Shown here: in pieces, positions 31,180-63,550 of the stretch | Numbering within the stretch: position 1 is the stretch's first letter | How the letters are laid out: every line of letters starts with the position of its first letter | Source: Synergistota bacterium | GTDB lineage: Bacteria > Synergistota > GBS-1 | Length of the DNA: 64,000 nt | Assembly: GCA_025060595.1 (NCBI GenBank) | Contig: JANXBX010000001.1 | Span: 185,696-249,695 of the forward strand | Reading direction: 5' to 3' | Notes under the pieces: model-generated | What the model was told of the DNA's origin: nothing | What the model saw: only the letters and a program-made list of their open reading frames with translations | The model's database searches: none | Translations under genes and position numbers: made by a program

Positions 31180-31230
31180 ACTTATCCCCCCTCCTTCTGT
31201 ATACTAGTATTCATATACAGATTATCTTAT

Positions 31231-31242: not shown

Positions 31243-31317
31243 AATCAATCTTAAAAAATCAATAATATGCTGCACGAGGTTTTGAATTCTTCCATTTTTT
31301 TTCAAATATCTTTAAAT

Positions 31318-31330
31318 CTCTTTAAAAGAG
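31318..31330. promoter_or_regulatory. Palindrome CTCTTTAAAAGAG abutting the iclR stop codon; candidate operator half-site pair
   Basis: Read directly; built from the same AAAGAG/CTCTTT hexamer as the 31231 palindrome. Confidence 0.3.
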
Positions 31331-32071
31331 TCAATAACCAAGTTTTTTTGAGATTTCTTCCGCTGCTTTTTTCAAGGCTGAAGCACAAATCTCTATGACT
31401 TCACCGGTTAGCTTCTGAGAAGCTCCCGATATGCTCATACCAGCTATTGGATAACCATTATGATCAAAAATTGGTACCCCCACACACTTTATACCTATTT
31501 CATTCTCTTCATTATCAATAGAAAAACCTCTTTCTCTAATCCTCTTAAGCTCTTCCTTAAGCCTAAGAGGATCAGTAATAGTGTTGGGAGTTTTACGCTC
31601 CAGGTTAACTTTTGAAAGATACTCTTCAAGTTCTTTTTCGGGTAAATAAGCCAAAATCGCCTTACCAGAAGCTGAGGAGTAAAGCTGGATTTTCATCCCC
31701 ACCCTAGAAACCATAGGAATACTATTCACACCTTCAACCTTATCAATGTAAACCCCGTCAAAACCATCTTTAAGAACGAGATGAACAGTTTGAGCCGTTT
31801 TTGACATCACATCTACAAGGTAAGGATGAGCTATTTCCCTTAAGTCTATCTTTCTTAAGACCATCGAACCATATTCAGCTAACTTATATCCTGGAACATA
31901 TCTCTTATCCCTTTTTCTCGTTACAAAACCATATTCCTCAAAAACCTTCAAATACTTATATGCATTAGAAACGCTCATCTTGAATTTCCTGGCTACATCA
32001 CTTACACTAACATCACCAGGAGATGAAATCAAATAATCTAAAATCTCAATAGCCCTTCTTAGAGTGTTCAC
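31331..32071 (-). CDS. IclR-family transcriptional regulator (KdgR-like)
   Basis: N-terminal wHTH (ILDYLISSPGDVSVSDVARKFKMSVSNAYKYLKVFEEYGFV) and C-terminal effector domain; located inside the hexuronate cluster. Confidence 0.85.
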   Translation of the reverse strand: MNTLRRAIEILDYLISSPGDVSVSDVARKFKMSVSNAYKYLKVFEEYGFVTRKRDKRYVPGYKLAEYGSMVLRKIDLREIAHPYLVDVMSKTAQTVHLVLKDGFDGVYIDKVEGVNSIPMVSRVGMKIQLYSSASGKAILAYLPEKELEEYLSKVNLERKTPNTITDPLRLKEELKRIRERGFSIDNEENEIGIKCVGVPIFDHNGYPIAGMSISGASQKLTGEVIEICASALKKAAEEISKKLGY

Positions 32072-32163
32072 CTCTCTTCCCCTCCTTACCCATTTTAAAC
32101 ATTTATGATATTATAATACCATTAGGAAAATAACTTTCACAATCTTAAATAGGGGGTGGAAAA

Positions 32164-33528
32164 ATGTTTTTAGGAGAAAAATACCTCCTTACGAACGAAA
32201 CTGCCAAAAAAATTTACGAAAACATTCAAAATCTCCCAATTTTAGATCCTCACAACCACCTTGAGGCAAAAGAGATACTTGAAAACAAAAATTGGAACGA
32301 CATATGGGAAGCAGAAGGAGCAACAGATCATTATGTATGGAGCTTAATGAGAAGATGCGGAATAAAAGAGGAATACATAACTGGGAAAAGGACAAATAAG
32401 GAAAAATGGCTTGCCTTGGCTAAGGTCTTTCCAAACTTTGCAGGGAACCCAACTTATGAATGGATTCACCTTGACCTATGGAGGACCCTAAGAATAGAAA
32501 AGATCGTCTCTGAGGAAACAGCAGAGGAAATATGGGAAGAAAGCAAAAAAATCCTGGAAAGCGAAAATTTCAAACCTCAAGAAATTTTAAAGAATATAAA
32601 GGCTGAAATCTTGTGTACCACAGATGATCCATCTTCAGACTTAAGCTACCACTATAAGGCATCCCAAGAGATAAAGGAATTCAAAATACTTCCTACATGG
32701 AGACCTGACAATGCAATAAACATAGAAAAGGAGGAGTGGAAGAGCTATGTAGTAACTCTTGGAGAAATTTACAATGAGGATATTTCTAATCTAGATGGCT
32801 TCCTAAGGACCTTGTGGAAATCACATGAGAAGTTTAAAAAACACGGATGTGTAGGAAGCGACCATGCTATTCTTTACCCATACATAAAATTCGTTGAAAA
32901 AAAGAGTGCAGAAAAAATATATAGCAGAGCAATTTCAGGACAAAAACTTGAAGAAAATGAGATAAAAGACTTTAAATCCTTTATGATGATAGAGTTCGGC
33001 AAAATGAACCAAGAAACAGATTGGGTTACACAGCTTCACATTGGTGCCTTAAGAGACTATAGGGATAGCCTTTTTAAAACTTTAGGACCAAATTCGGGAG
33101 GGGACATCTCTACAAACTTCATAGAAATAGCCGAAGGATTAAGGTTCTTTTTAAATGAATTTGATAGCAAGTTAAAGATAGTCCTATATGTATTAGATCC
33201 CACCCATCTCCCCACAATAGCAACTATAGCAAGAGCCTTTCCTAACATATTCCTAGGAGCTCCATGGTGGTTTAATGATAGCCCATACGGTATGGAAACA
33301 TATCTTAAGTATACAGCAACTGTTGACATTCTCTATAACCTTGCAGGAATGGTCACCGACTCTAGAAAGCTCTTATCCTTTGGTTCCAGAATAGAAGTTT
33401 TCAGAAGGGTATTATCAAACGTTCTTGGAGAAATGGTAGAAAAAGGGCAAATACCTTATAAAGAGGCTTTAAGGCTTGCTGAACGCATATCCTACAGCGG
33501 ACCTAAAGAGATCTTCTTCAAACTTTGA
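32164..33528 (+). CDS. uxaC: Glucuronate isomerase
   Basis: 454 aa; N-terminus ...ILDPHNHL typical of UxaC. Confidence 0.9.
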   Translation: MFLGEKYLLTNETAKKIYENIQNLPILDPHNHLEAKEILENKNWNDIWEAEGATDHYVWSLMRRCGIKEEYITGKRTNKEKWLALAKVFPNFAGNPTYEWIHLDLWRTLRIEKIVSEETAEEIWEESKKILESENFKPQEILKNIKAEILCTTDDPSSDLSYHYKASQEIKEFKILPTWRPDNAINIEKEEWKSYVVTLGEIYNEDISNLDGFLRTLWKSHEKFKKHGCVGSDHAILYPYIKFVEKKSAEKIYSRAISGQKLEENEIKDFKSFMMIEFGKMNQETDWVTQLHIGALRDYRDSLFKTLGPNSGGDISTNFIEIAEGLRFFLNEFDSKLKIVLYVLDPTHLPTIATIARAFPNIFLGAPWWFNDSPYGMETYLKYTATVDILYNLAGMVTDSRKLLSFGSRIEVFRRVLSNVLGEMVEKGQIPYKEALRLAERISYSGPKEIFFKL

Positions 33529-33541: not shown

Positions 33542-34159
33542 ATGAGCTTTGAGCTTCTCTTAAGAAATATACCCTTAGAAATAAAGATAGAAGAGGTCAG
33601 AAGATACCTAGGAGAATATAAGGGGATAACAGAGATACCTAAGGAAATAAACTCTTTAATAGAAAGGTTAACTTTGTTTTCCAGAACCCTGATTACACCA
33701 TCAGCAACCTCGAAAAGCTTCAATATACTATCCTTTTCAGATAATATTATTGAAACTGAGGTAGTGAAACTTCCTGGTAGAGACATAGCTAAACTGCTTA
33801 GAAACTCTAAACAAGTTATATTCTGCGCAACTACTATAGGAAACACACTAGAAGAGGAGATAAATAGGCTCATAGATGAGAAAAGAATCCTTGAAGCAAC
33901 AATATTAGACGCTATAGGATCGACAGCTGCAGATACTGCAATGGACTATTTAAATAATTTGCTTAAAGCTGAGGCGATCCGTAAAGGCCTAAGCTTAACA
34001 AGAAGATATAGCCCAGGATATGGAGATTTTCCTCTTTCAATCCAGGAAAGCCTAGTTAAGTTTTCTGGGGGAGACTCTATAGGAATAAGAGTCTCCCCCT
34101 CATATATGCTTATACCAAGAAAATCAGTCACAGCTATAATAGGGGTGATGAAAAATTGA
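33542..34159 (+). CDS. Methionine synthase reactivation (AdoMet-binding) domain protein, stand-alone
   Basis: 205 aa with an RRYSPGYGDFP motif resembling the MetH activation-domain RPxPGYPACP signature. Immediately precedes and overlaps a MetH that lacks this domain, as in the Thermotoga TM0268/TM0269 arrangement. Confidence 0.65.
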   Translation: MSFELLLRNIPLEIKIEEVRRYLGEYKGITEIPKEINSLIERLTLFSRTLITPSATSKSFNILSFSDNIIETEVVKLPGRDIAKLLRNSKQVIFCATTIGNTLEEEINRLIDEKRILEATILDAIGSTAADTAMDYLNNLLKAEAIRKGLSLTRRYSPGYGDFPLSIQESLVKFSGGDSIGIRVSPSYMLIPRKSVTAIIGVMKN

Positions 34160-36495
34160 AGCTTGACTTTGAAAAGATAATGATACTAGATGGAGCAATG
34201 GGCACAGAGCTATACAAGAGAGGACTTCCCTCCACAGCCATACCTGAGGAGCTCAACCTCTCAAACCCAGAAATAGTAAAAGAGGTTCACAAGGCCTACG
34301 TAGAAGCAGGAGCTGACATAATAACTACAAACTCCTTTGGAGGAAACAGAATAAAGCTCCAAAGCAAAGGGCTTTCTCACAAACTCTACGAGATAAATAA
34401 AAAGGCTGCTGAGATAGCTAAAGAGGCCTCAGCAGGGAAATCTTTAGTAGCAGGTTCCTTAGGTCCTTTAGGTAGAATGATTGAACCCTTGGGGGATCTA
34501 TCCTTTGAGGAAGCAGTAAGCATCTTTAAGGAACAAGGATTAGCGCTTGCCGATGGAGGGGTTGACCTTTTTCTTATTGAAACAGCCATAGACATAATGG
34601 AGGTAAAAGCAGCAATACTAGGGTTAAGGGAACTTCCCATTAAGAAGCCTATAATATGCTCTTTAACCTTTACAGAGGGAACCCTTACAGTAACTGGAAC
34701 ATCGCCTTCCGTAGGAGCGGTAAGCTTAACCTCCTGGAGGGTTAACGGATTAGGAGCAAACTGTGGAACTAATCCCTTTATATTTCCAGAGATAATAAAA
34801 GAAATGGCAAGCTATACGGAAATCCCAATAATAGCATATCCCAATGCTGGTCCTCCTGAAAAGTGGGATGAGGTTCCTCCAGAAAAGTTCTTGGAACTTG
34901 GACTCGAAATTTATAATTCTGGAGCCAACATCATAGGAGGTTGTTGCGGAACCACACCCTTCCACATAAGTTTGCTTGCAAAGGAAATTAAAGGTAAAAG
35001 AGTAGTAAAAAGATCCTTAAGAAAAGGGATTTTCCTTACAAGTAGATCCAAAATAGTTGTTTGTGATGACAGTAAAACTATAGTGATAGGGGAAAGAATA
35101 AATCCCTCTGGAAGAAAAGCTCTTGCAGAAGAGCTAAAACAAGGTAAGTTTGAAACTTTAAAAAGAGACGCTATAGAACAAGAGCTTGCAGGAGCTGACC
35201 TTATAGATTTAAATGTAGGCGTTCCTGAAACAGATAGAAAGGCTTTGATGAGAAAAGCAACCATTGAGCTTCTTAAGATAATAAGCTCGCCTCTATCCTT
35301 TGATAGCGATGATCCGGAAGTCATAGAAGCTGGTTTAAAGATATATCCAGGAAAGCCTATTTTAAACTCAACAACAGCGAAAAAAGAGGCATTAGAGAAA
35401 ACACTACCTTTGGCCCAAAAGTATGGAGCCGTAATAATAGGACTTACCATAACTGAAAAGGGCATACCTGAAAGCGTAGAAGAGAGAGTTAAAGCAGCCT
35501 ACAAAATAATCGAAGCAGCCCAGTTTTATGGAATTCCCCCACAAGAGGTTATTATCGACCCATTAACTTTACCAGCTGGAGCTCAGGATCCAACTATAAC
35601 CTTAGAAACCATAAGAAGGCTTAACAAAGATGGAATTAAAACTATCTTAGGAATATCAAACGTCTCTCATGGCTTACCAGGGAGAGAAATCCTAAACTCA
35701 GCATTCCTAGCTATGGCCATTTCGGCTGGACTATCTTTCGCTATAATAAATCCCCTTAAAAAAGAGCTTATGGAAACTGTACTCGCTTCAGACGCATTAA
35801 CCGGCAAAGATAAAAAGGGAGAGAGATTTATAAGACTGATAGGTCCTAAAAGAGAAGAAAAAGAGTTAAGGGTTTCCGACCTAACCTTAAAGGAACTAAT
35901 AATAAGGGGTGAATCTGAAAGTGCTTCTAAAGAAGCGGAAAGGCTTATAAAATCTGGAGAGGAGCCTTTTTCAATAATAGAAAAATACGTCATACCAGGT
36001 CTCGAAGATGTTGGAGAAAAGTATGAAAAAAAGATCTACTTTTTACCACAACTTATAGCCTCTGCAGAAGCTGCAAGTTCGGTATTCGAGACAGTTAAGG
36101 CATTTTCTCTAAGGACTAACTCTCGAAAAGGAAGGATAGTTATGGCAACCGTTGAAGGAGACCTTCACGACCTCGGGAAAAAGATAGTAGGACTTGTTCT
36201 TGAAAGCTTCGGATACGAGATAATAGATCTCGGAAAGGATGTTCCAGCAACAGAGGTTTTAAGGAAGTCACAAGAATTAAAACCCGACGTCGTTGGATTA
36301 AGCTGTCTAATGACAACAACGCTTGATAATATGAAAAAAACTGTAAGGCTAATTAAAGAAAACCTACCAGAGATAAAGATCATGGTAGGAGGAGCGGCGG
36401 TAAATGAAGGCTTTGCAAAAGCCTGTGGTGCCGATGGATATGGTAAAGATCCTTTTCAAGCTGTTGAGCTAGTCAGAAGGTGGATTAAAAGATGA
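34156..36495 (+). CDS. metH: Cobalamin-dependent methionine synthase core (Hcy-binding, pterin-binding, B12-cap and B12-binding domains; no activation domain)
   Basis: ILDGAMGTELY Hcy-domain N-terminus; pterin-binding GERINPSG; DLHDLGKKIVG (DxHxxG) cobalamin motif; 779 aa. Confidence 0.9.
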   Translation: MKLDFEKIMILDGAMGTELYKRGLPSTAIPEELNLSNPEIVKEVHKAYVEAGADIITTNSFGGNRIKLQSKGLSHKLYEINKKAAEIAKEASAGKSLVAGSLGPLGRMIEPLGDLSFEEAVSIFKEQGLALADGGVDLFLIETAIDIMEVKAAILGLRELPIKKPIICSLTFTEGTLTVTGTSPSVGAVSLTSWRVNGLGANCGTNPFIFPEIIKEMASYTEIPIIAYPNAGPPEKWDEVPPEKFLELGLEIYNSGANIIGGCCGTTPFHISLLAKEIKGKRVVKRSLRKGIFLTSRSKIVVCDDSKTIVIGERINPSGRKALAEELKQGKFETLKRDAIEQELAGADLIDLNVGVPETDRKALMRKATIELLKIISSPLSFDSDDPEVIEAGLKIYPGKPILNSTTAKKEALEKTLPLAQKYGAVIIGLTITEKGIPESVEERVKAAYKIIEAAQFYGIPPQEVIIDPLTLPAGAQDPTITLETIRRLNKDGIKTILGISNVSHGLPGREILNSAFLAMAISAGLSFAIINPLKKELMETVLASDALTGKDKKGERFIRLIGPKREEKELRVSDLTLKELIIRGESESASKEAERLIKSGEEPFSIIEKYVIPGLEDVGEKYEKKIYFLPQLIASAEAASSVFETVKAFSLRTNSRKGRIVMATVEGDLHDLGKKIVGLVLESFGYEIIDLGKDVPATEVLRKSQELKPDVVGLSCLMTTTLDNMKKTVRLIKENLPEIKIMVGGAAVNEGFAKACGADGYGKDPFQAVELVRRWIKR

Positions 36496-49275: not shown

Positions 49276-49629
49276 ATGGCAGAGCAATATCATGAACCAA
49301 CAAATGAACTAACAGCAAAAGACAGGGATTTCACAAGAGCGCTCGTAAGCTTAAAGGAAGAGATCGAAGCAATAATGTGGTACCAGCAGAGAGCTTCCGC
49401 CACCAAAGATGAAACCATTAGGGAAGTGTTAGAACACAACAGGGACGAAGAGATGGAGCATGCGGCTATGCTCCTTGAGTGGCTCAGAAGAAACATGCCT
49501 GGCTGGGATAAAGCTTTAAAAACTTATCTCTTTACAACTGAACCATTAACACAGATAGAAGCGGAAGTAAGTAATGAAGAGGAATCTCCAGGTGGAGATC
49601 TTAAACTAAGAAAGATTAAAAGGGGGTGA
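49276..49629 (+). CDS. Encapsulated ferritin-like protein (EncFtn/Flp cargo) with C-terminal encapsulin targeting peptide
   Basis: Two ExxH di-iron motifs (EEIEAIMWYQQR, EEMEHAAML) and C-terminal GGDLKLRKIKRG resembling the T. maritima Flp cargo-loading peptide; directly precedes the encapsulin gene. Confidence 0.8.
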   Translation: MAEQYHEPTNELTAKDRDFTRALVSLKEEIEAIMWYQQRASATKDETIREVLEHNRDEEMEHAAMLLEWLRRNMPGWDKALKTYLFTTEPLTQIEAEVSNEEESPGGDLKLRKIKRG

Positions 49630-49635
49630 ATTCTA

Positions 49636-50433
49636 GTGGACTTCTTAAGGAGAAAGCTATCTCCACTTACACCTAAAGAATGGGAAGAGGTAGATAAGAG
49701 AGCTAAAGAAGTGTTCTCAACCCAACTTTATGGAAGAGCAATAGTAGACGTTCTTGGTCCTTTTGGATGGGAATACGCTGCACATCCTATGGGTGAAGTA
49801 GAAAAGCTCTCTAAAGAAGGAGATACTATAGAGTTTGGTTTAAGAAAAGCGCTTCCTTTAATAGAGCTAAAGAGGTACTTCTACCTCGATCTTAATGAAC
49901 TTGATAAATTAGAAAGGGGACATCCTGCGGTAGACCTATCCTCCCTAGAAGAAGCGGTTAGAGACGTTGCATCTTTCGAAGACGGAGCTATCTTCGAAGG
50001 ATGTGAAAAGTCTGGAATAAAAGGAATTTTAGCTTATAAAAATGAAAGAAACATACAATCTTCCTTGAAAGAGGAGGAGTTTATAGAAAGCTTATACAAG
50101 GCCTTATCTAAATTCAAGTCTGATGGAATTGAAGGACCCTACGCCTTAGTTATAAACATAGATAAGTGGGTAGAACTCGTTAAGGGAAGCAAGTATTATC
50201 CTATAGAGGAAAAGATTGAAGATATATTAAAAGATGGTAAGATTCTCACCACACCACGTATAAGCGATGCTCTTGTGGTTTCTGAAAGAGGCGGTGATTT
50301 TGAGCTTATTTTAGGACAAGACCTATCAATAGGTTATGAAAAAACAGAAAACTCGAAGGTAAAACTATTTATCCTTGAAAGCTTCACCTTTAGAGTGGTC
50401 AACCCTGAAGCTTTAGTATATCTTAAGTTTTAA
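49636..50433 (+). CDS. Family-1 encapsulin nanocompartment shell protein (HK97 fold; linocin M18/maritimacin-like)
   Basis: 265 aa; strong similarity along the full length to T. maritima encapsulin as recalled from memory ([45 protein letters not shown]). Confidence 0.9.
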
Positions 50434-54158: not shown

Positions 54159-54986
54159 CTACTTAACTGGAACAAAACCCTCATCCTTAACTATCTTCTG
54201 CCCTTGCGGAGACAAGATGAAATCTATGAAGTCCTTAACTGCACCTTTAGGTTCTCCATTAGTGTACAGGAAAAGCGGCCTCGAGAGCTTATAAGTACCA
54301 TTTACTACCGTCTCCATCGTGGGCTTAACTCCCTCAATCTCCAAAGCCTTAACCTTATCGGTAACGTATCCTAATCCTATATAACCAATAGCACCCTCTG
54401 TCTGAGCAACAGCCTCTGCAACAGCTTTGTTAGAGGCTAAAAGAAGAGCGTCTCCCCTAAGCTTCTCATCCTTTAAGACAAGCTCATGGAAAGATCCGTA
54501 AGTTCCAGAAGCGGTATCTCTTGAAACGACCACGATCTTAACGTCCTTCCCACCAACTTCCTTCCAATTATTTATCTTTCCACTGTATATATCTCTAACT
54601 TGAGCAACTGTCAAAGCCTTCACAGGATTAGATGGATGAACAACTATAGCCAAACCATCCCTCGCAATCATATGCTCAACAGGATTAACGCCTCTGGCCT
54701 TAGCCTTCTCTATCTCCTCTTTCTTCATAGCTCTTGAAGACATCGCTATATCACAAGTCCCATCGATAAGAGCCGCTATTCCTACGCCAGAACCCCCTCC
54801 CTTGACAGAAACATTAACATCCTTTTTAACATCCATAAACTTTTCAGCACAAGCTTGAGCGATTGGAAATACAGTGGTTGAACCAACTACGTTAACGCTC
54901 TTAGACTGTGCCCATACCCCAAAAGCAAAAGCTAAAACTAAAGTAGCTACTACAACTATCCTCCTAAGCCTCATAAAACAAACCAC
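54159..54986 (-). CDS. pstS: Phosphate-binding protein PstS
   Basis: Signal peptide; PBP-superfamily SGTYGSF phosphate-binding pattern; likely start at 54974 (MRLRR). Confidence 0.85.
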   Translation of the reverse strand: MVCFMRLRRIVVVATLVLAFAFGVWAQSKSVNVVGSTTVFPIAQACAEKFMDVKKDVNVSVKGGGSGVGIAALIDGTCDIAMSSRAMKKEEIEKAKARGVNPVEHMIARDGLAIVVHPSNPVKALTVAQVRDIYSGKINNWKEVGGKDVKIVVVSRDTASGTYGSFHELVLKDEKLRGDALLLASNKAVAEAVAQTEGAIGYIGLGYVTDKVKALEIEGVKPTMETVVNGTYKLSRPLFLYTNGEPKGAVKDFIDFILSPQGQKIVKDEGFVPVK

Positions 54987-55109
54987 CTCCTAAGAATTTT
55001 TCTATAAGGAATTTTAGTAGGATATATTAAAGCAAGTACAAAGGAATCTTAAAGAAATCTTTACAAAGACGCTTATCAAAAAAAAGGAACTTAAAGAATA
55101 AAATAAAAA

Positions 55110-55140
55110 GGGGAACCCCAATAGGAATATGGGGTTCCCC
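55110..55140 (-). terminator. Rho-independent terminator GGGGAACCCCA-N9-TGGGGTTCCCC after the TRAP SBP gene
   Basis: Perfect 11-bp stem; U-rich tract on the minus transcript (rc of AAGAATAAAATAAAAA). Confidence 0.7.
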
Positions 55141-55169
55141 CTTCCCTTAAAAACTAGGTGCTTTTTCAC

Positions 55170-56207
55170 CTATTGACGAGGTATACCTGACTCCTTATAG
55201 ATGAGATCCATAAGGTTCTTCCCACAGAGCTCTTCCATCTTGGGCCATACAACCTTTCTCACATGCTTGGCTATCTTATCAAGCTGTTCAGCAGTTAACA
55301 TAACGATCGTCCACCCATATTCCTTCTGGAGTTTCTGACGATACTCCTCATCAACCTGCTTTGCCCTATCCCACTGAATCTTAGATTCTTCGTTTGCGGC
55401 CTCCATTAACACCTTCTGATCCTCAGGAGACAGCTTATCCCAAATTCCCTTGTTTATAACAAACCACCAAGTCTCGCAGAAGTCGTTGTACTGTATCCAA
55501 ACCTTCTGAACATCACGGAACTGCCAACCTTGGTAAGGCGGACCGCCCATCTGCCCATCAGCTACACCCATCTGAAGGGCAGTGTAAACCTCAGCATAAG
55601 GTATAGGGGTAGCGATGTAACCTAAAGCCTCATAAGTCCACTCACAGGGCTTTATAGGCATAACGCGAACCTTCATACCCTTCTTAACTGTAGGATCTTC
55701 AGGATTTGGAGGCATAGCCTTCAATGATACACCGCTCATACCAATCGGTACAACATCCAAAGCCTTTATGTTATGCTTTTCCCAGAGCTTCTGAACGACC
55801 TTGTAAGCCCAACCTCCGGGACTGTAGACTTTAACCGCATCTTCGAAGGTCGTGAATATGTATGGGAAGTAATAAGCCAAATTGAGTTCAGGGTCAAAGT
55901 TAGCATTGGCTTGTTGTAAAGCTACTTCGATAGTCCCACGCATTACCATTTCAAAGATCTGCGTCCAGTCCCCCAATACTCCACCAGAATAAACATCAAT
56001 CTTGATCTTACCCTTGGTTCTCTCAAAAACCTTCTTAGCAAATTCCTTAGCACGGATGTCATAATCGCTATCTACAGGGTGAATCTGAGACATCCTCCAC
56101 TGATACTGGGGTTGCTGTTGCTGAGCTAAGCCTGATCCAACCATTAGACCTAAACTTAAAACCGCTAAGAAAACCACAACCAACACACTTAAAAGTTTCT
56201 TACCCAA
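55170..56207 (-). CDS. dctP: TRAP transporter substrate-binding protein, DctP family, separated from its dctQM partners
   Basis: Signal peptide, Gln-rich linker, DctP-family core. Cognate dctQ/dctM lie at 59627-61491 on the same strand. Confidence 0.8.
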   Translation of the reverse strand: MGKKLLSVLVVVFLAVLSLGLMVGSGLAQQQQPQYQWRMSQIHPVDSDYDIRAKEFAKKVFERTKGKIKIDVYSGGVLGDWTQIFEMVMRGTIEVALQQANANFDPELNLAYYFPYIFTTFEDAVKVYSPGGWAYKVVQKLWEKHNIKALDVVPIGMSGVSLKAMPPNPEDPTVKKGMKVRVMPIKPCEWTYEALGYIATPIPYAEVYTALQMGVADGQMGGPPYQGWQFRDVQKVWIQYNDFCETWWFVINKGIWDKLSPEDQKVLMEAANEESKIQWDRAKQVDEEYRQKLQKEYGWTIVMLTAEQLDKIAKHVRKVVWPKMEELCGKNLMDLIYKESGIPRQ

Positions 56208-56369
56208 TATACCTCACCTCCATAGAGTGCTTTACTTTCAAGCTAATTTTAACACATAAAACTGAAAACATGCAAGTAAACGAAGCTAATCTTAGTAAAC
56301 CCACCTTTATATTTTTCGTTCTTGAAAAATAAAAAAATATCCTTTAGAGTTTTAGAAGGGGGTGATCTG

Positions 56370-56669
56370 ATGATAGCTAAAAGAGGTGATTTTGTCCAAA
56401 TCCAAGTTAAAATACTTGAACCTGGGGAAAGGGCTCCAAACCTACCAGAAGACACTAAAAGGGTTCCTTTCGAAATGAGGGTTAAGGGGTTTCTAATCGA
56501 AGAGGAAGCAAAATTAGGATCCAGCGTTAAAATAAGGACCTTTTCTGGCAGAGAGATAAGTGGAACCTTAGTAGCCATAAATCCAGTATACGAACATAAC
56601 TTTGGCGAGCCGGTTCCTGAGCTCTTAAACATCGGTGAAGAGCTAAGAAAGATATTAGGAGGTGAATAG
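56370..56669 (+). CDS. ortA: 2-amino-4-ketopentanoate thiolase alpha subunit
   Basis: 99 aa from the ATG at 56370 (RBS AGAAGGGGGTGA). Motifs PEDTKRVP, VKGFL, VAINPVYEHNFGEPVPELL closely resemble C. sticklandii OrtA as recalled. The track start (56322) is overcalled. Confidence 0.75.
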   Translation: MIAKRGDFVQIQVKILEPGERAPNLPEDTKRVPFEMRVKGFLIEEEAKLGSSVKIRTFSGREISGTLVAINPVYEHNFGEPVPELLNIGEELRKILGGE

Positions 56670-56670
56670 C

Positions 56671-58104
56671 TTGAAGGAAAGATACTCTTACCAAGCAGTT
56701 ATGGAAAGAAGAGCTGAGATAATGAGAAAGGCAGTCGGTATAGATTACGATAGGTTCGTAATTAAAGGAATAGCTTTCGACTATGAGAGAATGATGAAAG
56801 AGGTAGGATATCCCATAGAAGAGATAAGAAAGATCCAAAGCGAAACATCTGTCGGGAATACTCCTCTTGTAGAGCTTAAAAACATAAATAAGCTGATTAA
56901 GAAACTAGCTCCAAAAGGTAAGGGAGCCAGGATATTCCTGAAGGATGAAGCAACGAACCCCTCTGGAAGCTTTAAGGATCGAAGAGCGTCAATAAGCATA
57001 TATCGAGCATCACAACTGGGATATAAGGGCGTCATCGCCGCCACAAGCGGCAATTACGGAGCAGCGGTTGCATCTCAAGCAGCAAAGAGAAACCTAAGAT
57101 GCATAATAGTTCAGGAGTGCTTCGATAATAATTGGATAGGACAGCCAGAAATATTGGAAAAGGGAAGGGCTTGTGAAGCATATGGTGCAGAAGTAGTTCA
57201 GCTTACTGTTGGACCGGAGCTATTTTATTACACGCTTGTCCTTCTAGAAGAGACCGGTTATTTTAATGCCTCACTTTATACCCCTTATGCTATAGCTGGA
57301 ATAGAAACTCTAGGATATGAGATAGCTGAACAAACCCAAAAACTTACAGGAAGATTCCCTGATGCAGTCGTAGTTACACATGCTGGAGGAGGACTCATAA
57401 CTGGAACCGCACGTGGACTTAAGAAAGCGGGAGCACAAGAGACTAAAGTAATAGGTGCAAGTGTAGATCTAAGAGGTCTACATATGGCCAGCACAAATGA
57501 CTTTAACAAGAAATACTTTACTACAGGACATACGGGATTTGGTATACCTTTTGCAGCCTATCCTGACAGGGCAGATGTCCCTAAAAACGCAGCAAGACCC
57601 CTAAGATACATGGATAGATATGTTCTTGTAACTCAGGGAGATGTTTTCTATATAACTGAGATGCTTGCGCAGCTCGAAGGCCTACAGAGAGGACCCGCTG
57701 GAAACACATCCTTAGCTGCAGCCTTTTCTCTTGCAATGGAAATGGAAGAGGATAAAATAATAGTCGTCAATGAAACGGAATATACCGGAGCTGGAAAGCT
57801 ACCTTCTGCTCAGCTAACCTTCGCTAAAAAAATGGGAATGATAGTTAAACGAGGAGATCCCTTGAAGGAAGATAAACCAGGACAGGTTATAGTTATACCA
57901 GAACATCCATCTCAGATAAGGCACATAGAATATCCCTTAGAAGAACTTAAAAAGAGCTATATTAAGGAACTAATACGTCGAGAAAATAAGAAAGACTTCG
58001 ATGAAAAGGAGTTAAGCTTCTTAGAGGAAGATTTAAGAATCTCAAGAAAAGAATTGATCAAGCTTATAGATGAGGTAAAAATAGCCCTTCAGGGGTTACC
58101 TTAA
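56671..58104 (+). CDS. ortB: 2-amino-4-ketopentanoate thiolase beta subunit (PLP-dependent, Trp-synthase-beta fold)
   Basis: TTG start 5 nt after RBS AGGAGGTGA; SFKDRRAS PLP-lysine motif; about 477 aa; immediately follows ortA. Confidence 0.75.
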   Translation: MKERYSYQAVMERRAEIMRKAVGIDYDRFVIKGIAFDYERMMKEVGYPIEEIRKIQSETSVGNTPLVELKNINKLIKKLAPKGKGARIFLKDEATNPSGSFKDRRASISIYRASQLGYKGVIAATSGNYGAAVASQAAKRNLRCIIVQECFDNNWIGQPEILEKGRACEAYGAEVVQLTVGPELFYYTLVLLEETGYFNASLYTPYAIAGIETLGYEIAEQTQKLTGRFPDAVVVTHAGGGLITGTARGLKKAGAQETKVIGASVDLRGLHMASTNDFNKKYFTTGHTGFGIPFAAYPDRADVPKNAARPLRYMDRYVLVTQGDVFYITEMLAQLEGLQRGPAGNTSLAAAFSLAMEMEEDKIIVVNETEYTGAGKLPSAQLTFAKKMGMIVKRGDPLKEDKPGQVIVIPEHPSQIRHIEYPLEELKKSYIKELIRRENKKDFDEKELSFLEEDLRISRKELIKLIDEVKIALQGLP

Positions 58105-58295
58105 AAAGCCATTTTAATTTAGACTAGAAAGATCCTATTTATTGTCTTTTACTATAAAAAATACCACTTCTGATAAAAAATCGAGGGTTGAATAAAACTA
58201 GAATGTAGGCTATGATAGAAATGAGATTAAATAGCATGAAGTAAAAAGAACCAAAAAGGAAACTTGCTATTTTTGAGGGGGGGGAGGATACCAAA

Positions 58296-59579
58296 ATGAG
58301 ATTAAGCACGATGGGGAATCTTAAGCCCTTTGGGCCACTTTATGAGAATGCTCAGAAACAGTTCTTAAAGGCAGCTGACCTCATAGACTTAGACCCAAAC
58401 CTTGGAAACTTTCTCTTATGGCCGCAGAGAACCTTGGAAGTTCACTTTCCAGTAGTAATGGATGATGGAAGAGTAGAAATATTTAAGGGGTATAGGGTAC
58501 AACATAACACAGCAAGAGGGCCTGCCAAGGGAGGCATAAGATATCATCCAGACACCCACCTTGATGAGGTTGCAGCCTTAGCATTTTGGATGACCTGGAA
58601 ATGCGCAGTTATGAACCTTCCTTTTGGCGGGGGTAAGGGCGGAGTTAGAGTTGATCCATCGAAGCTATCAGAAAAGGAGCTCGAGAGACTAAGCAGAAGA
58701 TACTTCTCAGAAATTCAAGTCATAATAGGGCCTCACAAGGATATACCGGCACCTGACATAAATACAAACCCAAAGATAATGGCCTGGTACATGGACACCT
58801 ATAGCATGAATGTAGGTTATACAAGCCTTGGCGTGGTTACAGGAAAGCCTCTTGACCTTGGCGGATCCGAAGGCAGACCGGAAGCAACAGGTAGAGGGGT
58901 TTCAATACTAGCAAACGAAGCCTGTAAGATCTTAGGAAAGGATATTTCGAAGGCAAGAGTTGCAATTCAAGGATTTGGAAACGTTGGCTCTTACTCAGCG
59001 AAGATATTAAGTGAGGAATATGGAGCAAAGATAGTAGCAGTAAGCGATATAAGCGGTGGCATATACGATGAAAGGGGATTAAACATTAGCGACCTAATAC
59101 ACTATAGGGACATGAATAAAGGTATAATTAAAGGCTATCCTAAAGGAGAAGCGATATCAAACAAGGAACTTTTGGAGCTTGATGTAGACATCTTAGTTCC
59201 AGCAGCTCTTGAAAATGCGATTACAGAAAAAAACGCAAATGATGTTAAGGCAAAGATTATAATCGAGGGGGCAAACGGTCCTATTACTCCAGAAGCAGAA
59301 GAGATTCTTTTAAAGAAAGGCATTTTTATTGTACCTGACATTGTGGCAAACGCAGGAGGAGTCGTAGTATCTTACTTTGAGTGGGTCCAAGATCTCCAAA
59401 CCTTCTTCTGGGATATTGATGAAATAAGAAAGAGGTTAATGAAAATGATGATTCATGCCTTCATAGAGGTCGGTAAAACCAAAGAAAAGTATAATACCGA
59501 TATGAGAACAGCCGCATATATAGTTGCAATTAACAGGGTCGCAAGCGCTCTAAAACAAAGAGGCTACTATCCAATGTAA
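58296..59579 (+). CDS. gdhA: Glutamate dehydrogenase (Glu/Leu/Phe/Val dehydrogenase family)
   Basis: GGGKGG catalytic-lysine motif region, GFGNVG Rossmann motif; RBS GAGGGGGGGGAGGA. Confidence 0.9.
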   Translation: MRLSTMGNLKPFGPLYENAQKQFLKAADLIDLDPNLGNFLLWPQRTLEVHFPVVMDDGRVEIFKGYRVQHNTARGPAKGGIRYHPDTHLDEVAALAFWMTWKCAVMNLPFGGGKGGVRVDPSKLSEKELERLSRRYFSEIQVIIGPHKDIPAPDINTNPKIMAWYMDTYSMNVGYTSLGVVTGKPLDLGGSEGRPEATGRGVSILANEACKILGKDISKARVAIQGFGNVGSYSAKILSEEYGAKIVAVSDISGGIYDERGLNISDLIHYRDMNKGIIKGYPKGEAISNKELLELDVDILVPAALENAITEKNANDVKAKIIIEGANGPITPEAEEILLKKGIFIVPDIVANAGGVVVSYFEWVQDLQTFFWDIDEIRKRLMKMMIHAFIEVGKTKEKYNTDMRTAAYIVAINRVASALKQRGYYPM

Positions 59580-59589
59580 TTAGAGAGAC

Positions 59590-59621
59590 AAGGCCCGTGA
59601 GGTTTTAACCTCACGGGCCTT
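59590..59621. terminator. Bidirectional terminator AAGGCCCGTGAGG-TTTTAA-CCTCACGGGCCTT shared by convergent gdh (+) and dctM (-)
   Basis: Perfect 13-bp stem; T-run follows on the plus strand and overlaps the dctM stop codon. Confidence 0.7.
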
Positions 59622-59626
59622 CATTT

Positions 59627-60931
59627 TTATCTAATACCGAGAACCAATTTAGGAAGCCACATGGAAAGCCAAGGGATATAGGTAGTAAGAGCTATAACGG
59701 GAAGATTTCCAAATATCATAAATATAAGAGCAGGCTTTATATATTGATCAAAGGAAACCCTACCCACTCGCCCTCCGAGATAAAGAATGGGAGCTGTAGG
59801 AGGGGTCACATTTCCAAGACCAAGATTTGTTCCTAAAATAGCGGCAAAATGCACCGGGTGAACCCCTATACGAACAGCCAGAGGTAAAAGAAGAGGAGCT
59901 ACAAGCAGGGTCCCGCTTAAATCATCCATAAGCATACCTATTATTATCAAGAAAACATTTATCATAAATAGAATCACATATTTGTTATCAGAGATAGAAA
60001 TAAGGAAATCAGCGATCTTCATAGGGACTTTCTCCATGGTATATATCCTGCCCAATATGGTTACGAAAAAGAGCATTAGAACAACAACACTGCTTGTAGT
60101 AGCGGCAGTATAGAGAGACTTAAAGAAGGTCTTAAAAGTAAGCTCTTTGTGAACAAAAAAACCAACTATTATCGCATAGGTAACCGCAACAGCAGCAGCT
60201 TCAGTAGGAGTTGTAACACCACCATATATTCCACCAAGAATTATCACGGGCATAAGAAGGCTCCAGATGCTCTGTCTTGTAGCTCGAGCCACTATTTTGA
60301 ATTTCTCGAAACCAGGAGCAGGTGGCTCAACCTTAACGAACGGGAAGTTCTTCTTAACCATTATGTAGTTAATTATAGAATATAAGGTCGCAGTTAAGAT
60401 GCCTGGAATAACTGTAGAAAGAAAGCAGGCGGTTATCGAAGTCTGCGTAACCCAACCATATAGAATCATAGGAACACTTGGGGGTATAAGCTGTCCTAAA
60501 ATTGCAGCACAACTGACCATTGCAGTAGTATAATACCTTGGATATCCTCTTTCTTCCAGCTTTGGAATCATTATGGTTCCTATAGCAGCCACAGCAGAGG
60601 AAGCGGTTCCAGAAATGGCACCAAATATAGCACAAGCCCAAATTGTAGCAGCACCTAATCCGCCTCTCATCCTTCCAAGAAGCGCCTCAGCAAATATAAC
60701 AAGCCTCTCAGCTATACCACTTGAGCCCATAAGCATTCCCGCCATAATAAAGAACGGTATTGACAACAGGGTTATAGAATTAAGAGCCTTAAATCCAACA
60801 CTAGCCAAAAAAGAAATATCAGGGAAAGCTATCAAAGCCATGTACAGAGCCGCCGCCATAAAAGCAAATGGGACTGGAACCCCTATAGACAAGCCAACTA
60901 TAAGTATAAGAATATCAATTACTATATGCAT
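59627..60931 (-). CDS. dctM: TRAP transporter large permease DctM
   Basis: 434-aa polytopic membrane protein with DctM motifs. Confidence 0.9.
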   Translation of the reverse strand: MHIVIDILILIVGLSIGVPVPFAFMAAALYMALIAFPDISFLASVGFKALNSITLLSIPFFIMAGMLMGSSGIAERLVIFAEALLGRMRGGLGAATIWACAIFGAISGTASSAVAAIGTIMIPKLEERGYPRYYTTAMVSCAAILGQLIPPSVPMILYGWVTQTSITACFLSTVIPGILTATLYSIINYIMVKKNFPFVKVEPPAPGFEKFKIVARATRQSIWSLLMPVIILGGIYGGVTTPTEAAAVAVTYAIIVGFFVHKELTFKTFFKSLYTAATTSSVVVLMLFFVTILGRIYTMEKVPMKIADFLISISDNKYVILFMINVFLIIIGMLMDDLSGTLLVAPLLLPLAVRIGVHPVHFAAILGTNLGLGNVTPPTAPILYLGGRVGRVSFDQYIKPALIFMIFGNLPVIALTTYIPWLSMWLPKLVLGIR

Positions 60932-60951
60932 AAAATTACCTCCTCCCCAGT

Positions 60952-61491
60952 CTAACTTTTTTCAATTTCTGGTGACAGCTCTTCTTCCTTCTTAAACCTT
61001 ATCTCCCTCTTGCCCAAAAGCTGCAAGGTATAGTCCACAATCTCTACAAATGTGTAAAAAACCATGAGAATCGCAGATATAAGCATAGCAACTTGAGCAT
61101 ATACGAGAGGAATCCTAAGAGAAGGAGTATATTCAGGGACTTTCAAAGCCCATTTTATATAATTCCAAGACCATTGGAGAAAGATGATAGTCATAATAAA
61201 AGTAAATATAGTTATCACAAATTTAATCTTCAAGAAATTCCTTGGGGTTTTTACGATAACATTTAAAACATCTGCCATAATATGGCTTCTTTCTCTAGAA
61301 GCATGTGCAGAACCTATAAAGTAAAGCCAACAACCAACCAAGGTGGCGAGCTCCTCAATCCCCATTAGAGGGCGAGCAAAAACATACCTTAGAATTACCT
61401 CCGCCATTACTAAAAAGGTAACTACTAACGAAACTATAACTAAAATCGTCTGTTCTGCCTTCTCAAGAAACTTCCAAATAAAAAGACCCAT
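60952..61491 (-). CDS. dctQ: TRAP transporter small permease DctQ
   Basis: 179 aa with 4 TM segments upstream of dctM. Confidence 0.8.
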   Translation of the reverse strand: MGLFIWKFLEKAEQTILVIVSLVVTFLVMAEVILRYVFARPLMGIEELATLVGCWLYFIGSAHASRERSHIMADVLNVIVKTPRNFLKIKFVITIFTFIMTIIFLQWSWNYIKWALKVPEYTPSLRIPLVYAQVAMLISAILMVFYTFVEIVDYTLQLLGKREIRFKKEEELSPEIEKS

Positions 61492-61596
61492 CCCTCCTAC
61501 CTCCCATCATTTTGTGTCATCTTTAAAATAAAGATACACATAAGTCTAGTTGACATTATACCAAAACCTTCCTAAAGGTAACAAGGATCAGATCCT

Positions 61597-62880
61597 TTAA
61601 GCTGGAAATGTTAATGTAAATCTACTTCCTTTGCCAAACTCGCTTTCAACCTCTACTCTTCCACCATGAAGAGATACTACTTCCTTAACTATACTTAATC
61701 CTAGACCCGCCCCACCTAATCTCTTTGATCTAGATCTATCAACTACATAAAACTTTTCAAAAATATAGGGTATGTGCTCTTTAGGTATGCCTATACCGGT
61801 ATCCTCAACAACTACTTTAATAGCTCCTTTAGAGCCTTCGACAATAACTTTTACACTTCCTCCCTCGACATTATACTTTATGGCATTTTCAATCAAATTT
61901 AAAAAGGCGCTTTCAAAGAGAATTCTGTCCCCCTCAATAAAAACTTTTTCTTCAGGCGATTCCAAAATCAAGGAAATCCCTTTTCTTTTTGCTTCTCCCT
62001 CTAAAAGAGATAACACATCCTTAATAAGCTCTATTAAATTCAAGGATTCCTTTCTCACTATTTCCCTTTCTACCTCCTGAAGAGTAAGAAGATCTGAAAC
62101 TATCTTGGTAAGCCTTTCAACGTTCCTCTTCACAATAGATAATAATCTGTTTTCCCCTATTTCCTCCTCCAGAGTCTCAGCTGCTCCCTTTATTGCCGCA
62201 AGGGGAGTTTTTATTTCATGAGCGATACTTGATATAAGGTTTGACTCTCTCTCCCGCAAGCGTACCTCCTCTGTAATCTCCTTAAGACAAATTAAAAGGC
62301 CGCTCTTTAAGAGCGACCCATTGCTAAGAAAAACCCTATCCTTCAAACTAAGCCTAAAGTTTCTAACGCTTCCCTTCTCCTTAATTAAGCTAAAAAGCTC
62401 AAAGAAATTCCCATCCCTAAAAAGCTCCCAATACCATCTACCTTTGAATTCTTTACCACTATCCTTTTCAAGAAGAAAATAAAAAGATCTATTAGCTTCA
62501 ACTATCCTACCAACCTCATCTATCAAAACCACTGGATCATCTAAAAGATCAAAAAGAGCTTTAAGTTTTTCCTCCTTTTTGAGGCCTTCTTTAAACGAAA
62601 GCTCCATATAACGAGCAAGCTCATTAATCTCGCTGAAAACCTTACTTATTTCATCATCGCTATCTACGAATATTCTAACCCTATAGTCTCCAAGCTTAAG
62701 ATAACTAAGAAGATGCCTTAAATGTTTAAGCTTCTTTTCAATCCTATAAAATAAAAAATTAAAAACAAGCAAAGCTATACTTACCACTAAAAGTCTAAGC
62801 TTCAAGGAAGCTAAACTAACCACAAGAATAATGGACAAAAGAAACGTGAGAAAAAGGAAAAACTTATCTCTCCATCTCAA
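61597..62880 (-). CDS. Sensor histidine kinase (PhoR-like)
   Basis: N-terminal TM anchor, HAMP/PAS-like region, H-box HEIKTPLAAIKG, HATPase G-boxes. Confidence 0.8.
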   Translation of the reverse strand: MRWRDKFFLFLTFLLSIILVVSLASLKLRLLVVSIALLVFNFLFYRIEKKLKHLRHLLSYLKLGDYRVRIFVDSDDEISKVFSEINELARYMELSFKEGLKKEEKLKALFDLLDDPVVLIDEVGRIVEANRSFYFLLEKDSGKEFKGRWYWELFRDGNFFELFSLIKEKGSVRNFRLSLKDRVFLSNGSLLKSGLLICLKEITEEVRLRERESNLISSIAHEIKTPLAAIKGAAETLEEEIGENRLLSIVKRNVERLTKIVSDLLTLQEVEREIVRKESLNLIELIKDVLSLLEGEAKRKGISLILESPEEKVFIEGDRILFESAFLNLIENAIKYNVEGGSVKVIVEGSKGAIKVVVEDTGIGIPKEHIPYIFEKFYVVDRSRSKRLGGAGLGLSIVKEVVSLHGGRVEVESEFGKGSRFTLTFPA

Positions 62881-63550
62881 ACTTGTATCCTACTCCTCTA
62901 ACAGACCTAATGGAGCTCCCAAAACCTTTAAGCTTTTTCCTCAAACTGCTTACATGAACATCTATAGTTCTATCAACCACAAATTTCCCTCCCCAGAACT
63001 TCTCAAGAAGCTCATCCCTCGAAAAAACCCTCCCAGGATTCTGAAGAAATATAGAAAGAAGCCTGAACTCAACAGGAGTTAAGTCGAGTTTCTCCTCTTC
63101 TAAATAGGCTTCCATTTTCTCAAAGTCTAAAAGAATTGGACCCGCCTTAAGCAGGCCTCTCCTTTCTGATTTTGCACTTGCTCTTCTTAAAAGAGCTTTA
63201 ACTCTTGCAACTAGCTCTCGAGGACTGAAGGGTTTTGTAAGATAATCATCAGCGCCAAGCTCAAGACCCACTACCTTATCAACTTCCGAATCCTTAACAC
63301 TTAAGATAATTATAGGAATACTAGAAAACCTATAGTTACTTTTAAGATATCTACATATTTCGAAACCATCAACACCAGGAAGAAGAATATCCAAAATAAT
63401 TATATCTGGATAGAACTTATCCAAAGCAGATAGAAAGCTCTCTCCATCACTAAAGGCCTTCACCTCAAAGCCCTCTTTCACCAAATTATAAGATATTAGT
63501 TCTGCTATATCTTCCTCATCATCTACTACAGCAACTACCCTTTTCGTCAT
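62864..63550 (-). CDS. OmpR/PhoB-family response regulator
   Basis: Receiver domain with DD...D...K pattern and winged-helix C-terminus. Confidence 0.85.
   Translation of the reverse strand: MTKRVVAVVDDEEDIAELISYNLVKEGFEVKAFSDGESFLSALDKFYPDIIILDILLPGVDGFEICRYLKSNYRFSSIPIIILSVKDSEVDKVVGLELGADDYLTKPFSPRELVARVKALLRRASAKSERRGLLKAGPILLDFEKMEAYLEEEKLDLTPVEFRLLSIFLQNPGRVFSRDELLEKFWGGKFVVDRTIDVHVSSLRKKLKGFGSSIRSVRGVGYKFEMER

Follow-up and report, generated by a model that had tools for sequence, protein, structure and literature searches.

Genes for 2-amino-4-ketopentanoate thiolase within a split TRAP transporter operon of a Synergistota bacterium, and their recurrence beside the same transporter subfamily

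In a 64,000-nucleotide stretch of the genome of a Synergistota bacterium (contig JANXBX010000001.1; hereafter the window), the genes of a tripartite ATP-independent periplasmic (TRAP) transporter, dctQ-dctM and dctP, are separated by three genes on the opposite strand: ortA and ortB, for the two subunits of 2-amino-4-ketopentanoate (AKP) thiolase, and gdh, for a glutamate dehydrogenase (GDH). The best explanation of this locus is that it is one case of a recurrent Synergistota module, in which a subfamily of TRAP transporters (DctPQM) is combined with OrtAB, the upper, B12-dependent half of the ornithine pathway being absent. AKP thiolase (EC 2.3.1.263) converts (2R)-2-amino-4-oxopentanoate and CoA to acetyl-CoA and D-alanine, thiolytic cleavage being the direction in which it operates physiologically, and its presence has so far been taken as a sign of B12-dependent ornithine (Stickland-type) fermentation. 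Its genes are said to belong to a cluster for oxidative L-ornithine degradation (orr, oraS, oraE, oraF, ord, ortA and ortB) in Clostridium sticklandii, C. difficile and Thermotogota, and we know of AKP and 2,4-diaminopentanoate only as intracellular intermediates of ornithine fermentation. The combination of ortAB with TRAP genes, its recurrence across the phylum and the substrate that it implies are new; the components are all known already. No account of ortAB apart from the ornithine cluster, with TRAP genes, or operating without oraSE was found in the literature that we searched. The features of the locus, in window coordinates, are as follows.

55170-56207, minus strand: dctP, TRAP solute-binding subunit, 345 amino acids (PF03480, 155 bits; NF037995, 122 bits)
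56208-56369, no strand assigned: divergent spacer between dctP and ortA, 162 bp, with two back-to-back sigma-70-like promoters, predicted
56370-56669, plus strand: ortA, AKP thiolase small subunit (NF040739, 131.5 bits, cutoff 70; PF22010, 127 bits)
56671-58104, plus strand: ortB, AKP thiolase large subunit, dependent on pyridoxal phosphate (PLP), 477 amino acids (NF040741, 812 bits, cutoff 550)
58105-58295, plus strand: AT-rich spacer between ortB and gdh, 191 bp, with a promoter-like site
58296-59579, plus strand: gdh, hexameric-type glutamate dehydrogenase, 427 amino acids (PF02812, 202 bits; PF00208, 282 bits)
59590-59621, no strand assigned: perfect hairpin between the convergent gdh and dctM, 14-bp stem and 4-nt loop
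59627-60931, minus strand: dctM, TRAP large permease, 434 amino acids (PF06808, 300 bits; TIGR00786, 360, cutoff 268)
60952-61491, minus strand: dctQ, TRAP small permease, 179 amino acids (PF04290, 72 bits)
61555-61584, minus strand: promoter-like site 5' of dctQ, predicted to serve the dctQM transcript (TTGTTA-18-TATAAT)

A preliminary description of this DNA had assigned the two ort genes to AKP thiolase, and profile searches upheld the assignment, with both subunits scoring above the equivalog cutoffs of NCBIfam. The OrtB of the window is 100% identical to an NCBI protein named OrtB, and in its SFKDRR motif, which we take to hold the PLP lysine, S100, K102, D103, R104 and R105 are invariant across 19 homologues. 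In OrtB from canonical ornithine clusters, 196 columns show at least 95% conservation; the window protein keeps 194 of them (the changes are S156N and D278T), and a search of the conserved columns for a specificity change common to all TRAP-linked OrtB clades found none. The same chemistry is therefore to be expected.

The recurrence of the pairing was evaluated by a metagenome scan with a DctP alignment, which was blind to ortB and gave 80 further loci (numbered here with the prefix L) that were classified by BLAST. Among loci with the order dctQMP and at least 3 kb on both sides, 24 of 29 carried ortAB, comprising 17 of the 22 with a DctP more than 58% identical to that of the window and all seven Thermovirgaceae-like loci. 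In contrast, BLASTP found oraS or oraE in none of 83 loci of the TRAP subfamily, in flanks of up to 8-9 kb. A gene for a class-III 'aminotransferase' (AT3) was present in 17 of the 22 loci of the first group, and alr in 7/7 of the Thermovirgaceae-like group. The gene orders found were ortAB-dctQMP-AT3, dctQMP-AT3-ortAB, ortAB-alr-dctQMP (Thermovirgaceae), alr-ord-ortAB-dctQMP-AT3 and the split form of the window. Two Aminivibrio loci (L087 and L090) read ortA-ortB-dctQMP-AT3, Aminobacterium colombiense (L088) has IclR-dctQMP-AT3-ortA-ortB, and a JGI metagenome contig (L089) has dctQMP plus AT3 and no ortAB. Four loci read alr-ord-ortA-ortB-dctQMP-AT3, and the presence of a true Ord in TRAP-ortAB loci without oraSE indicates that this importer and the lower half of the pathway can go together. 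The general idea of the preliminary description, that the thiolase is reached by a different, transporter-fed route, thus has strong comparative support: ortAB stands beside orthologues of this TRAP in at least four OrtB clades and in several gene orders, never with oraSE.

The earlier statement that ord, oraS, oraE and orr are missing from the 64-kb window was borne out, and oraF was likewise not found, by BLASTP against its open reading frames, with queries from the Alkaliphilus peptidifermentans cluster L046, whose genes were verified with Pfam (sigma-54 activator, ord, ortA, ortB, oraS, oraE, MutL-like oraF and orr, in this order). By Pfam, the other genes of the window have unrelated functions, including hexuronate catabolism, MetH, FeoB and MetRS. 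The usual setting of ortB was examined by a scan with an OrtB alignment, limited to one genome per species, from which 80 loci were kept. A contiguous ord-ortA-ortB-oraS-oraE(-oraF-orr) block was present in about 65 of the 80, including Fervidobacterium, the source of the nearest OrtB to that of the window (82-83%). Sixty-six OrtB-bearing loci were classed as canonical, all 66 with oraS and/or oraE in the same locus, and where enough contig was available ord, ortA, ortB, oraS and oraE formed one contiguous block. A minority of the 80 loci lacked oraSE; two of these, from Thermovirgaceae, read ortA-ortB-alr-dctQ-dctM-dctP, with a DctM 63-64% and a DctP 50% identical to those of the window. The module therefore resembles the canonical cluster in having the same enzyme at equivalog level, encoded by two tightly coupled genes, and differs from it in that neither the window nor the TRAP-linked loci carry oraS, oraE, oraF, ord or orr, save for ord in four of the latter, and in that a TRAP importer is present instead. 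Within the canonical set, the Thermotogota clusters L006-L011, L069 and L085 read ord-ortA-ortB-oraS-oraE, and BLAST finds no adjacent oraF or orr; both of these genes are present in most Firmicutes clusters. P0248, considered as an upper-pathway candidate for the source genome, was rejected because it belongs to a canonical Thermotogota cluster. The window also encodes a MetH-type cobalamin-dependent methionine synthase with B12-binding domains (34156-36495), indicating that the organism uses B12; this is relevant to whether an aminomutase dependent on the cofactor could work if encoded elsewhere in the genome.

The interruption of the TRAP operon by a plus-strand ortA-ortB-gdh block was likewise confirmed. 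The six open reading frames are at the positions claimed for them and fit the claimed families, as judged from the listing of reading frames and from profile searches, and all three TRAP components are present (P, Q and M; PF03480, PF04290 and PF06808). In a syntenic relative, L086, dctQ-dctM-dctP is contiguous and ortAB is absent, the order being PriA-Der-response regulator-histidine kinase-pstSCA-dctQMP-rhodanese. The distance from the dctP start to the dctM stop in the window is 3419 bp, in agreement with the reported 3.4 kb. The TRAP genes do not form a single operon, because this length of opposite-strand genes lies between dctP and dctQM, and dctP, split from dctQM, needs its own promoter. 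Flanking the module are pstS-pstC-pstA on one side (54986-52444, with no neighbouring pstB or phoU) and a PhoR/PhoB-like two-component pair on the other (61597-63550); the order in L086 indicates that the TRAP and pst blocks exchanged places in the window's lineage. No meaningful flanking direct repeats were found around the 3.4-kb block and no mobile-element traces at its borders, the sole tRNA gene of the window is 17 kb from the block, and no GC break is seen there.

A sister lineage (L003-L005, L093 and L127), on metagenomic contigs that, to go by the names of the metagenomes, are from 77 °C sediment of Great Boiling Spring, has the same split form, dctP / ortA-ortB / dctM-dctQ, without gdh, and its ortB and dctM are convergent with a 23-bp gap. 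The slot between dctM and dctP in the lineage holds ortAB, ortAB with gdh, or gdh alone. Relative to the sister lineage, module and flanks alike have reached saturation at synonymous sites (proportion of synonymous differences, pS, 0.67-0.81), while nonsynonymous divergence (dN) is 0.045-0.061 for dctM, dctP and ortB (0.056 for dctP) and 0.17-0.43 in the flanking pstSCA, M32 peptidase, response regulator and kinase genes. Synonymous saturation together with low dN indicates a long-standing arrangement maintained by strong purifying selection, and not one lineage's recent acquisition from the other.

In a neighbour-joining tree of 115 sequences, the TRAP-linked OrtBs fall into at least four clades, and that of the window lies within canonical Thermotogota as the sister of Fervidobacterium; the window OrtB is 83% identical to Fervidobacterium OrtB and 61-66% identical to other TRAP-linked OrtBs. 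As the TRAP genes are nearest to those of Synergistota, the module is chimeric. To judge from these sequences, either a resident ortAB may have been replaced by a Thermotogota copy or the pairing may have arisen again independently, and either history argues for functional coupling.

The TRAP transporter itself belongs to a small subfamily centered on Synergistota. There were 146 relatives of DctP at E <= 1e-20, of which those bearing names were almost all Synergistota, with identities of 72% (Acetomicrobium), 68% (Aminivibrio), 65% (Aminobacterium) and 54% (Thermovirgaceae); DctM is 94% identical to that of the sister lineage and 63-87% identical to Synergistota orthologues. DctP begins with a signal-peptide-like segment, and its AlphaFold2 model (predicted local distance difference test score 92.5) has the DctP-type fold, with TM-scores normalised to the target of up to 0.86. 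The best PDB sequence matches (4NGU, 4P47 and 4N8G) score about 81 bits; 4NGU and 4N8G are reportedly complexes with D-Ala-D-Ala, which was given no weight in judging the ligand of DctP. R181, in the motif KVRVMP, is invariant among 25 members of the subfamily and aligns with an arginine in 4NGU and 4P47, and it may be equivalent to SiaP R147, the conserved carboxylate-binding arginine (PMC4646407). The transporter is like DctPQM, SiaPQM, TeaABC/UehABC and the proteins screened by the Enzyme Function Initiative in its P/Q/M composition, its DctP fold and, presumably, its KxRxM arginine. It differs from the known DctP-type systems in that its operon is split, with separate promoters for P and QM, and in that its subfamily is largely from Synergistota and tied to enzymes of D-amino acids and AKP rather than to those of sugar acids or dicarboxylates.

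The genes that accompany the module elsewhere were examined for what they share. The best scores of AT3 were to isoleucine 2-epimerase (457 bits), a Pyrococcus broad-specificity racemase (413) and an alanine/serine racemase (406), the first true aminotransferase following at 342, and AT3 is also above the NCBIfam PRK08360 threshold. The AT3 proteins of the Aminivibrio and Aminobacterium modules have class-III-fold racemases (Lactobacillus isoleucine 2-epimerase and the two Pyrococcus horikoshii enzymes) as top scorers, the AT3 gene itself being absent from the window; a role of AT3 as a 2,4-diaminopentanoate transaminase is possible. The alr gene next to the module encodes a standard alanine racemase (TIGR00492, 316 bits), and alr also occurs in or beside the canonical ornithine clusters L037, L040, L055 and L067. 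The idea that AT3 and Alr are functional analogues was dropped, because L133 carries both. Racemase-type partners, together with the D-alanine product and (2R) substrates of the thiolase, point to D-configured small amino acids as a common thread. Other recurrent neighbours were a protein of about 530 amino acids with an Amidohydro_3 domain, an M20 peptidase with a cupin, and a PALP enzyme; the first may be part of the D-amino-acid theme if its family includes D-aminoacylases. Orphan ortAB in Firmicutes has comparable neighbours. In Wukongibacter an orphan ortAB lies beside an NhaC-like carrier and an S58 peptidase. A Sedimentibacter locus with ortAB and no ornithine genes (L082, 6440-14337) contains a sigma-54 activator, a class I/II aminotransferase, an HpcH/HpaI aldolase, an FAA-family hydrolase, ortA, ortB, an AT3-like gene and a Na+:alanine symporter gene, and it is a speculative suggestion that its enzymes link AKP with 2,4-dioxopentanoate or 4-hydroxy-2-oxopentanoate. 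In Aminivibrio, a Kbl-family gene (TIGR01825, NF005394) and then a short-chain dehydrogenase/epimerase-family gene, taken to be tdh with no model hit, stand directly 5' of ortAB-dctQMP. Tdh-Kbl follows an analogous logic, in which PLP and CoA serve to split an amino-keto acid into acetyl-CoA and a smaller amino acid. However, Kbl is of fold type I, whereas OrtB is of fold type II and requires OrtA, and the two differ in the position of the keto group and in the product, which is glycine for Kbl and D-alanine for OrtB.

The dehydrogenase gene adjacent to ortAB had been called a canonical glutamate dehydrogenase, correctly so: both ELFV domains are present, and over 414 residues the protein shares 68% identity with the Thermotoga maritima enzyme of solved structure (1B26). 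The two proteins are identical at PAKGGIRYH, LPFGGGKGG and NAGGV-VSYFEWVQ, and upstream of the LPFGGGKGG motif there is one difference (TWKCAV in the window, TWKTAV in 1B26). From Clostridium symbiosum GDH numbering, PAKGGIRYH, LPFGGGKGG and NAGGV-VSYFEW presumably hold the glutamate-binding and catalytic residues. In NCBIfam the protein matches only GDH models; its score against NF040817 is 637, under the cutoff of 750, which reads as a non-archaeal sequence scored against an archaeal model. It had further been proposed that a GDH-family enzyme stands in for Ord here and carries out the oxidative deamination of 2,4-diaminopentanoate to AKP. The position of gdh next to ortAB fits this proposal, as does a possible co-transcription of the genes across the terminator-free ortB-gdh spacer. 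Nevertheless, it is disfavoured by the close match to T. maritima GDH, by the sister lineage, which has the same ortAB/TRAP layout without gdh, and by L092, in which gdh occurs without ortAB, and we give it next to no probability. Wherever relatives with TRAP and ortAB carry a dehydrogenase, it is a genuine Ord (PF19328, 316 bits) rather than a GDH, and since gdh is also optional in the slot, no basis is left for GDH acting as Ord. The gene is an optional passenger of the dctM-dctP slot. The ordinary explanation of its function is that an amino group would be disposed of through a transaminase and GDH; the GDH-transaminase couple is established in the interconversion of alanine and pyruvate in T. 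maritima and Thermococcales, where GDH works with alanine aminotransferase. The window has a closely related GDH, and differs in that gdh is an optional insert beside an alanine-producing thiolase, with no adjacent aminotransferase. The gdh of L092 (1158-2439) is interrupted near codon 298 by a single frameshift, the result of misassembly or the mark of a decaying gene.

The start codons fix the size of the region between dctP and ortA. The reading frame of ortA, as called mechanically, opens at TTG 56322, and ATG 56370, behind GGGGGTGA, is the likelier start; dctP starts at TTG 56207, behind GGAGGTG. With these starts the divergent region is 162 bp long, in keeping with the 160 bp given before. 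The mechanical frame of ortB opens at GTG 56662 (480 amino acids), and the deposited 477-residue protein begins three codons downstream, at the likeliest start, TTG 56671, which is preceded by the ribosome binding site GGAGGTGA and lies two bases past the ortA stop (56667-56669); ortA is directly 5' of ortB on the same strand. The predicted promoter of dctP is TTGCAT-18-TGnTAAAAT on the minus strand (56275-56246), and that of ortA is TTGAAA-17-TAGAGT (56322-56350). On the dctP side, ATTTTAACA and GCAAG boxes are kept in three lineage variants; the -35 box of ortA, CTTGAAAAA, is kept in all three, before ortA in two of them and before gdh in the third. Co-regulation of dctP and ortA from the shared divergent spacer, as suggested earlier, is plausible. 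Promoter-like sites are also present in the ortB-gdh spacer (TTGAAT-17-TATGAT, 58188-58216) and upstream of dctQ, the latter with an extended TG and 10/12 positions matching. No terminator was found in the 191 bp between ortB and gdh, and transcription of gdh may continue from ortA or begin at a site of its own. The hairpin at 59590-59621, about -30 kcal/mol on either strand, lies 10 nt past the gdh stop and 5 nt past the dctM stop. It had been described as a perfect bidirectional terminator. The perfect hairpin stands and makes a canonical intrinsic terminator for gdh, the T-run following it on the plus strand (CATTTTTATC), but the minus strand continues GUCUCUCUAA, and dctM has no U-tract. 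An Rfam scan of 54900-61700 found no riboswitch and one sub-threshold ctRNA match on the hairpin (31 bits, gathering threshold 45), which reads as the hairpin alone.

Taken together, these observations can be arranged into the following scheme. In this lineage ortAB, and later gdh, would have been placed between dctM and dctP, leaving dctP divergent from ortA and transcribed off the shared control region. DctP would capture a small, carboxylate-bearing and probably D-configured amino acid, and DctQM would import it. Our guess for the likeliest substrate is (2R)-2-amino-4-oxopentanoate or its immediate precursor 2,4-diaminopentanoate, for which some relatives would add Ord. OrtAB would then split AKP with CoA into acetyl-CoA and D-alanine, the acetyl-CoA could give ATP via acetate formation, and the alanine would be racemised and deaminated, with GDH only regenerating 2-oxoglutarate by releasing the ammonia from transamination. 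The analysis shows which genes are present and how they are laid out, that the pairing recurs, that oraSE is absent near any such TRAP, that purifying selection is strong and that the module is of chimeric origin; we infer that transporter and thiolase are functionally coupled, that the reaction runs in this direction and that GDH has this role. Import by the TRAP of a C5 amino-keto or diamino acid of D configuration, which OrtAB cleaves to acetyl-CoA and D-alanine, is a reading that we hold tentatively, at close to, but not quite, an even chance.

Several observations weigh against import and cleavage of such a compound. Ligand prediction for DctP gave no assignment, the Foldseek neighbours being at most 26% identical and having mixed ligands, and at this identity to any solved binding protein a ligand is not transferable. 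An environmental supply of AKP or 2,4-diaminopentanoate is hypothetical. The module of the window is without an adjacent racemase, Ord or class-III enzyme. Many of the surveyed loci come from near-identical strains, so that the counts overstate the number of independent observations, although the loci cover at least four clades despite the near-duplicates. The presence of the TRAP without ortAB in L086 and in Acetomicrobium-like loci indicates that the coupling is not obligatory, and L092 (LDZR01001278) reads dctM, gdh, dctP, with a gdh 87-90% identical and no ortAB. A distant clade with the order dctPQM (DctP 47-53% identical) also lacks ortAB and lies between an opine-dehydrogenase-family gene and alr: in six of its loci (L134, L154-L157 and L162) an octopine/nopaline (opine) dehydrogenase-family gene is located 5', and in L154, L157 and L162 alr is located 3'. 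This context suggests a ligand of the opine or alanine type for that clade, and because of the pairing of opine dehydrogenase with alr the ancestral ligand of the subfamily may be an alanine-like compound rather than AKP. Finally, the failure to find ord, oraSE and orr applies to the 64-kb window, and these genes could lie elsewhere in the genome.

If they do, the locus could belong to an ordinary ornithine fermentation whose genes are split between sites, with the TRAP importing ornithine or being an unrelated neighbour. AKP is known only from ornithine degradation, the OrtB of the window is near-canonical and of Thermotogota type, and B12 is available, since cobT, cobU and cobS lie near a sister locus (L003) and metH is in the window; in addition, a canonical Halanaerobiales cluster (L037) has an unrelated TRAP 5' of ord-ortAB-oraFSE. 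However, the companionship of ortAB with oraS and/or oraE in 66/66 canonical loci, set against 0/83 in the TRAP subfamily, argues against a split, as does, weakly because many matches are nameless, the finding that the name of the source genome is borne by none of the at least 120 relatives of Fervidobacterium OraE listed at 66% identity or more. We regard a split canonical pathway as unlikely, though it deserves to be taken seriously. The neighbourhood might also be coincidental, the dctM-dctP spacer being a permissive insertion site into which ortAB and gdh, functionally unrelated to the transporter, have entered. The differing content of the slot among close relatives, the uninterrupted dctQMP of L086, and the Thermotogota-type ortB and Thermotoga-like gdh, which indicate horizontal acquisition, would all fit. 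Such a coincidence is nonetheless very improbable in our judgment, because ortAB adjoins the same TRAP subfamily in at least three further clades of Synergistota, where the OrtB lineages are unrelated and the gene orders differ, because the arrangement has been kept to synonymous saturation under strong purifying selection, and because the block borders show no repeats, tRNA genes or mobile-element traces and no compositional break.

A further alternative places alanine at the center: the TRAP would import alanine, in its D or L form, or a compound that contains it (a D-Ala peptide, an N-acyl-D-amino acid or an opine), and ortAB would share the D-alanine pool, possibly condensing D-alanine with acetyl-CoA to AKP. 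The dctPQM-alr operons of the distant clade, without ortAB and often after the opine-dehydrogenase-family gene, are consistent with this, as are the Alr or class-III racemase-like genes that adjoin most members, the orphan ortAB of Sedimentibacter with the same class-III enzyme and a Na+:alanine symporter, and the gdh without ortAB beside dctP in L092, which would fit the deamination of alanine via a transaminase and GDH. On the other hand, condensation would spend the thioester of acetyl-CoA and yield AKP, which has no known fate where Ord and OraSE are lacking, and cleavage is the known physiological direction. The racemases are equally explained as handling the D-alanine made by OrtAB, and alr accompanies canonical clusters as well. 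We therefore consider an alanine-centered role rather improbable.

Two further TRAP systems were found in the 64 kb. The second (dctQ 6335-6832, dctM 5020-6321 and dctP 3933-4952, in a minus-strand cluster spanning 3933-9018) lies beside an aldehyde:ferredoxin oxidoreductase gene (7288-9018), and the genes near it, including those at about 1-3900, encode a cupin, Ldh_2, an RraA-like protein, two Zn-alcohol dehydrogenases, a creatininase-family protein and GFO/IDH/MocA oxidoreductases, a catabolic cluster with no obvious substrate from Pfam annotation. The third, with a fused dctQM (28247-30127) and a dctP (30214-31179), is within a hexuronate utilisation island (24495-33528) that contains uxuA, a mannitol-dehydrogenase-type oxidoreductase, a PfkB kinase, an IclR regulator and uxaC. 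A gene pair for encapsulated ferritin (EncFtn) and encapsulin is located at 49276-50433, about 5 kb from the module; the affinities of EncFtn, like those of the TRAP genes, support the assignment of the organism to Synergistota. Encapsulin recurs in the fetched flanks of nine loci of the TRAP subfamily, including Thermovirgaceae (for example L038, 4594-5397; L092, 10846-11643; L096, 1041-1862), and this proximity could reflect synteny or something more.

The wider proposal is that Synergistota, including this thermophilic lineage by way of its Thermotogota-derived ortAB, have a self-contained lower ornithine pathway fed with AKP or 2,4-diaminopentanoate by a dedicated TRAP, and so obtain acetyl-CoA either from an intermediate that neighbours fermenting ornithine would leak or from another natural 2-amino-4-oxo acid. 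We put this forward as a possibility and incline to doubt it on balance; if true, it would represent a cross-feeding route and a new class of TRAP substrate. The module is present in genera with cultured members, such as Aminobacterium and Aminivibrio. Its recurrence with no aminomutase nearby raises three directly testable possibilities: ornithine fermentation may be called too often by annotation pipelines in taxa such as Synergistota, a TRAP subfamily associated with enzymes of D-amino acids may be awaiting its ligand assignment, and anaerobic protein-degrading communities, such as those of digesters, oil reservoirs and hot springs, may have an unrecognised supply of 2-amino-4-oxo or 2,4-diamino acids.

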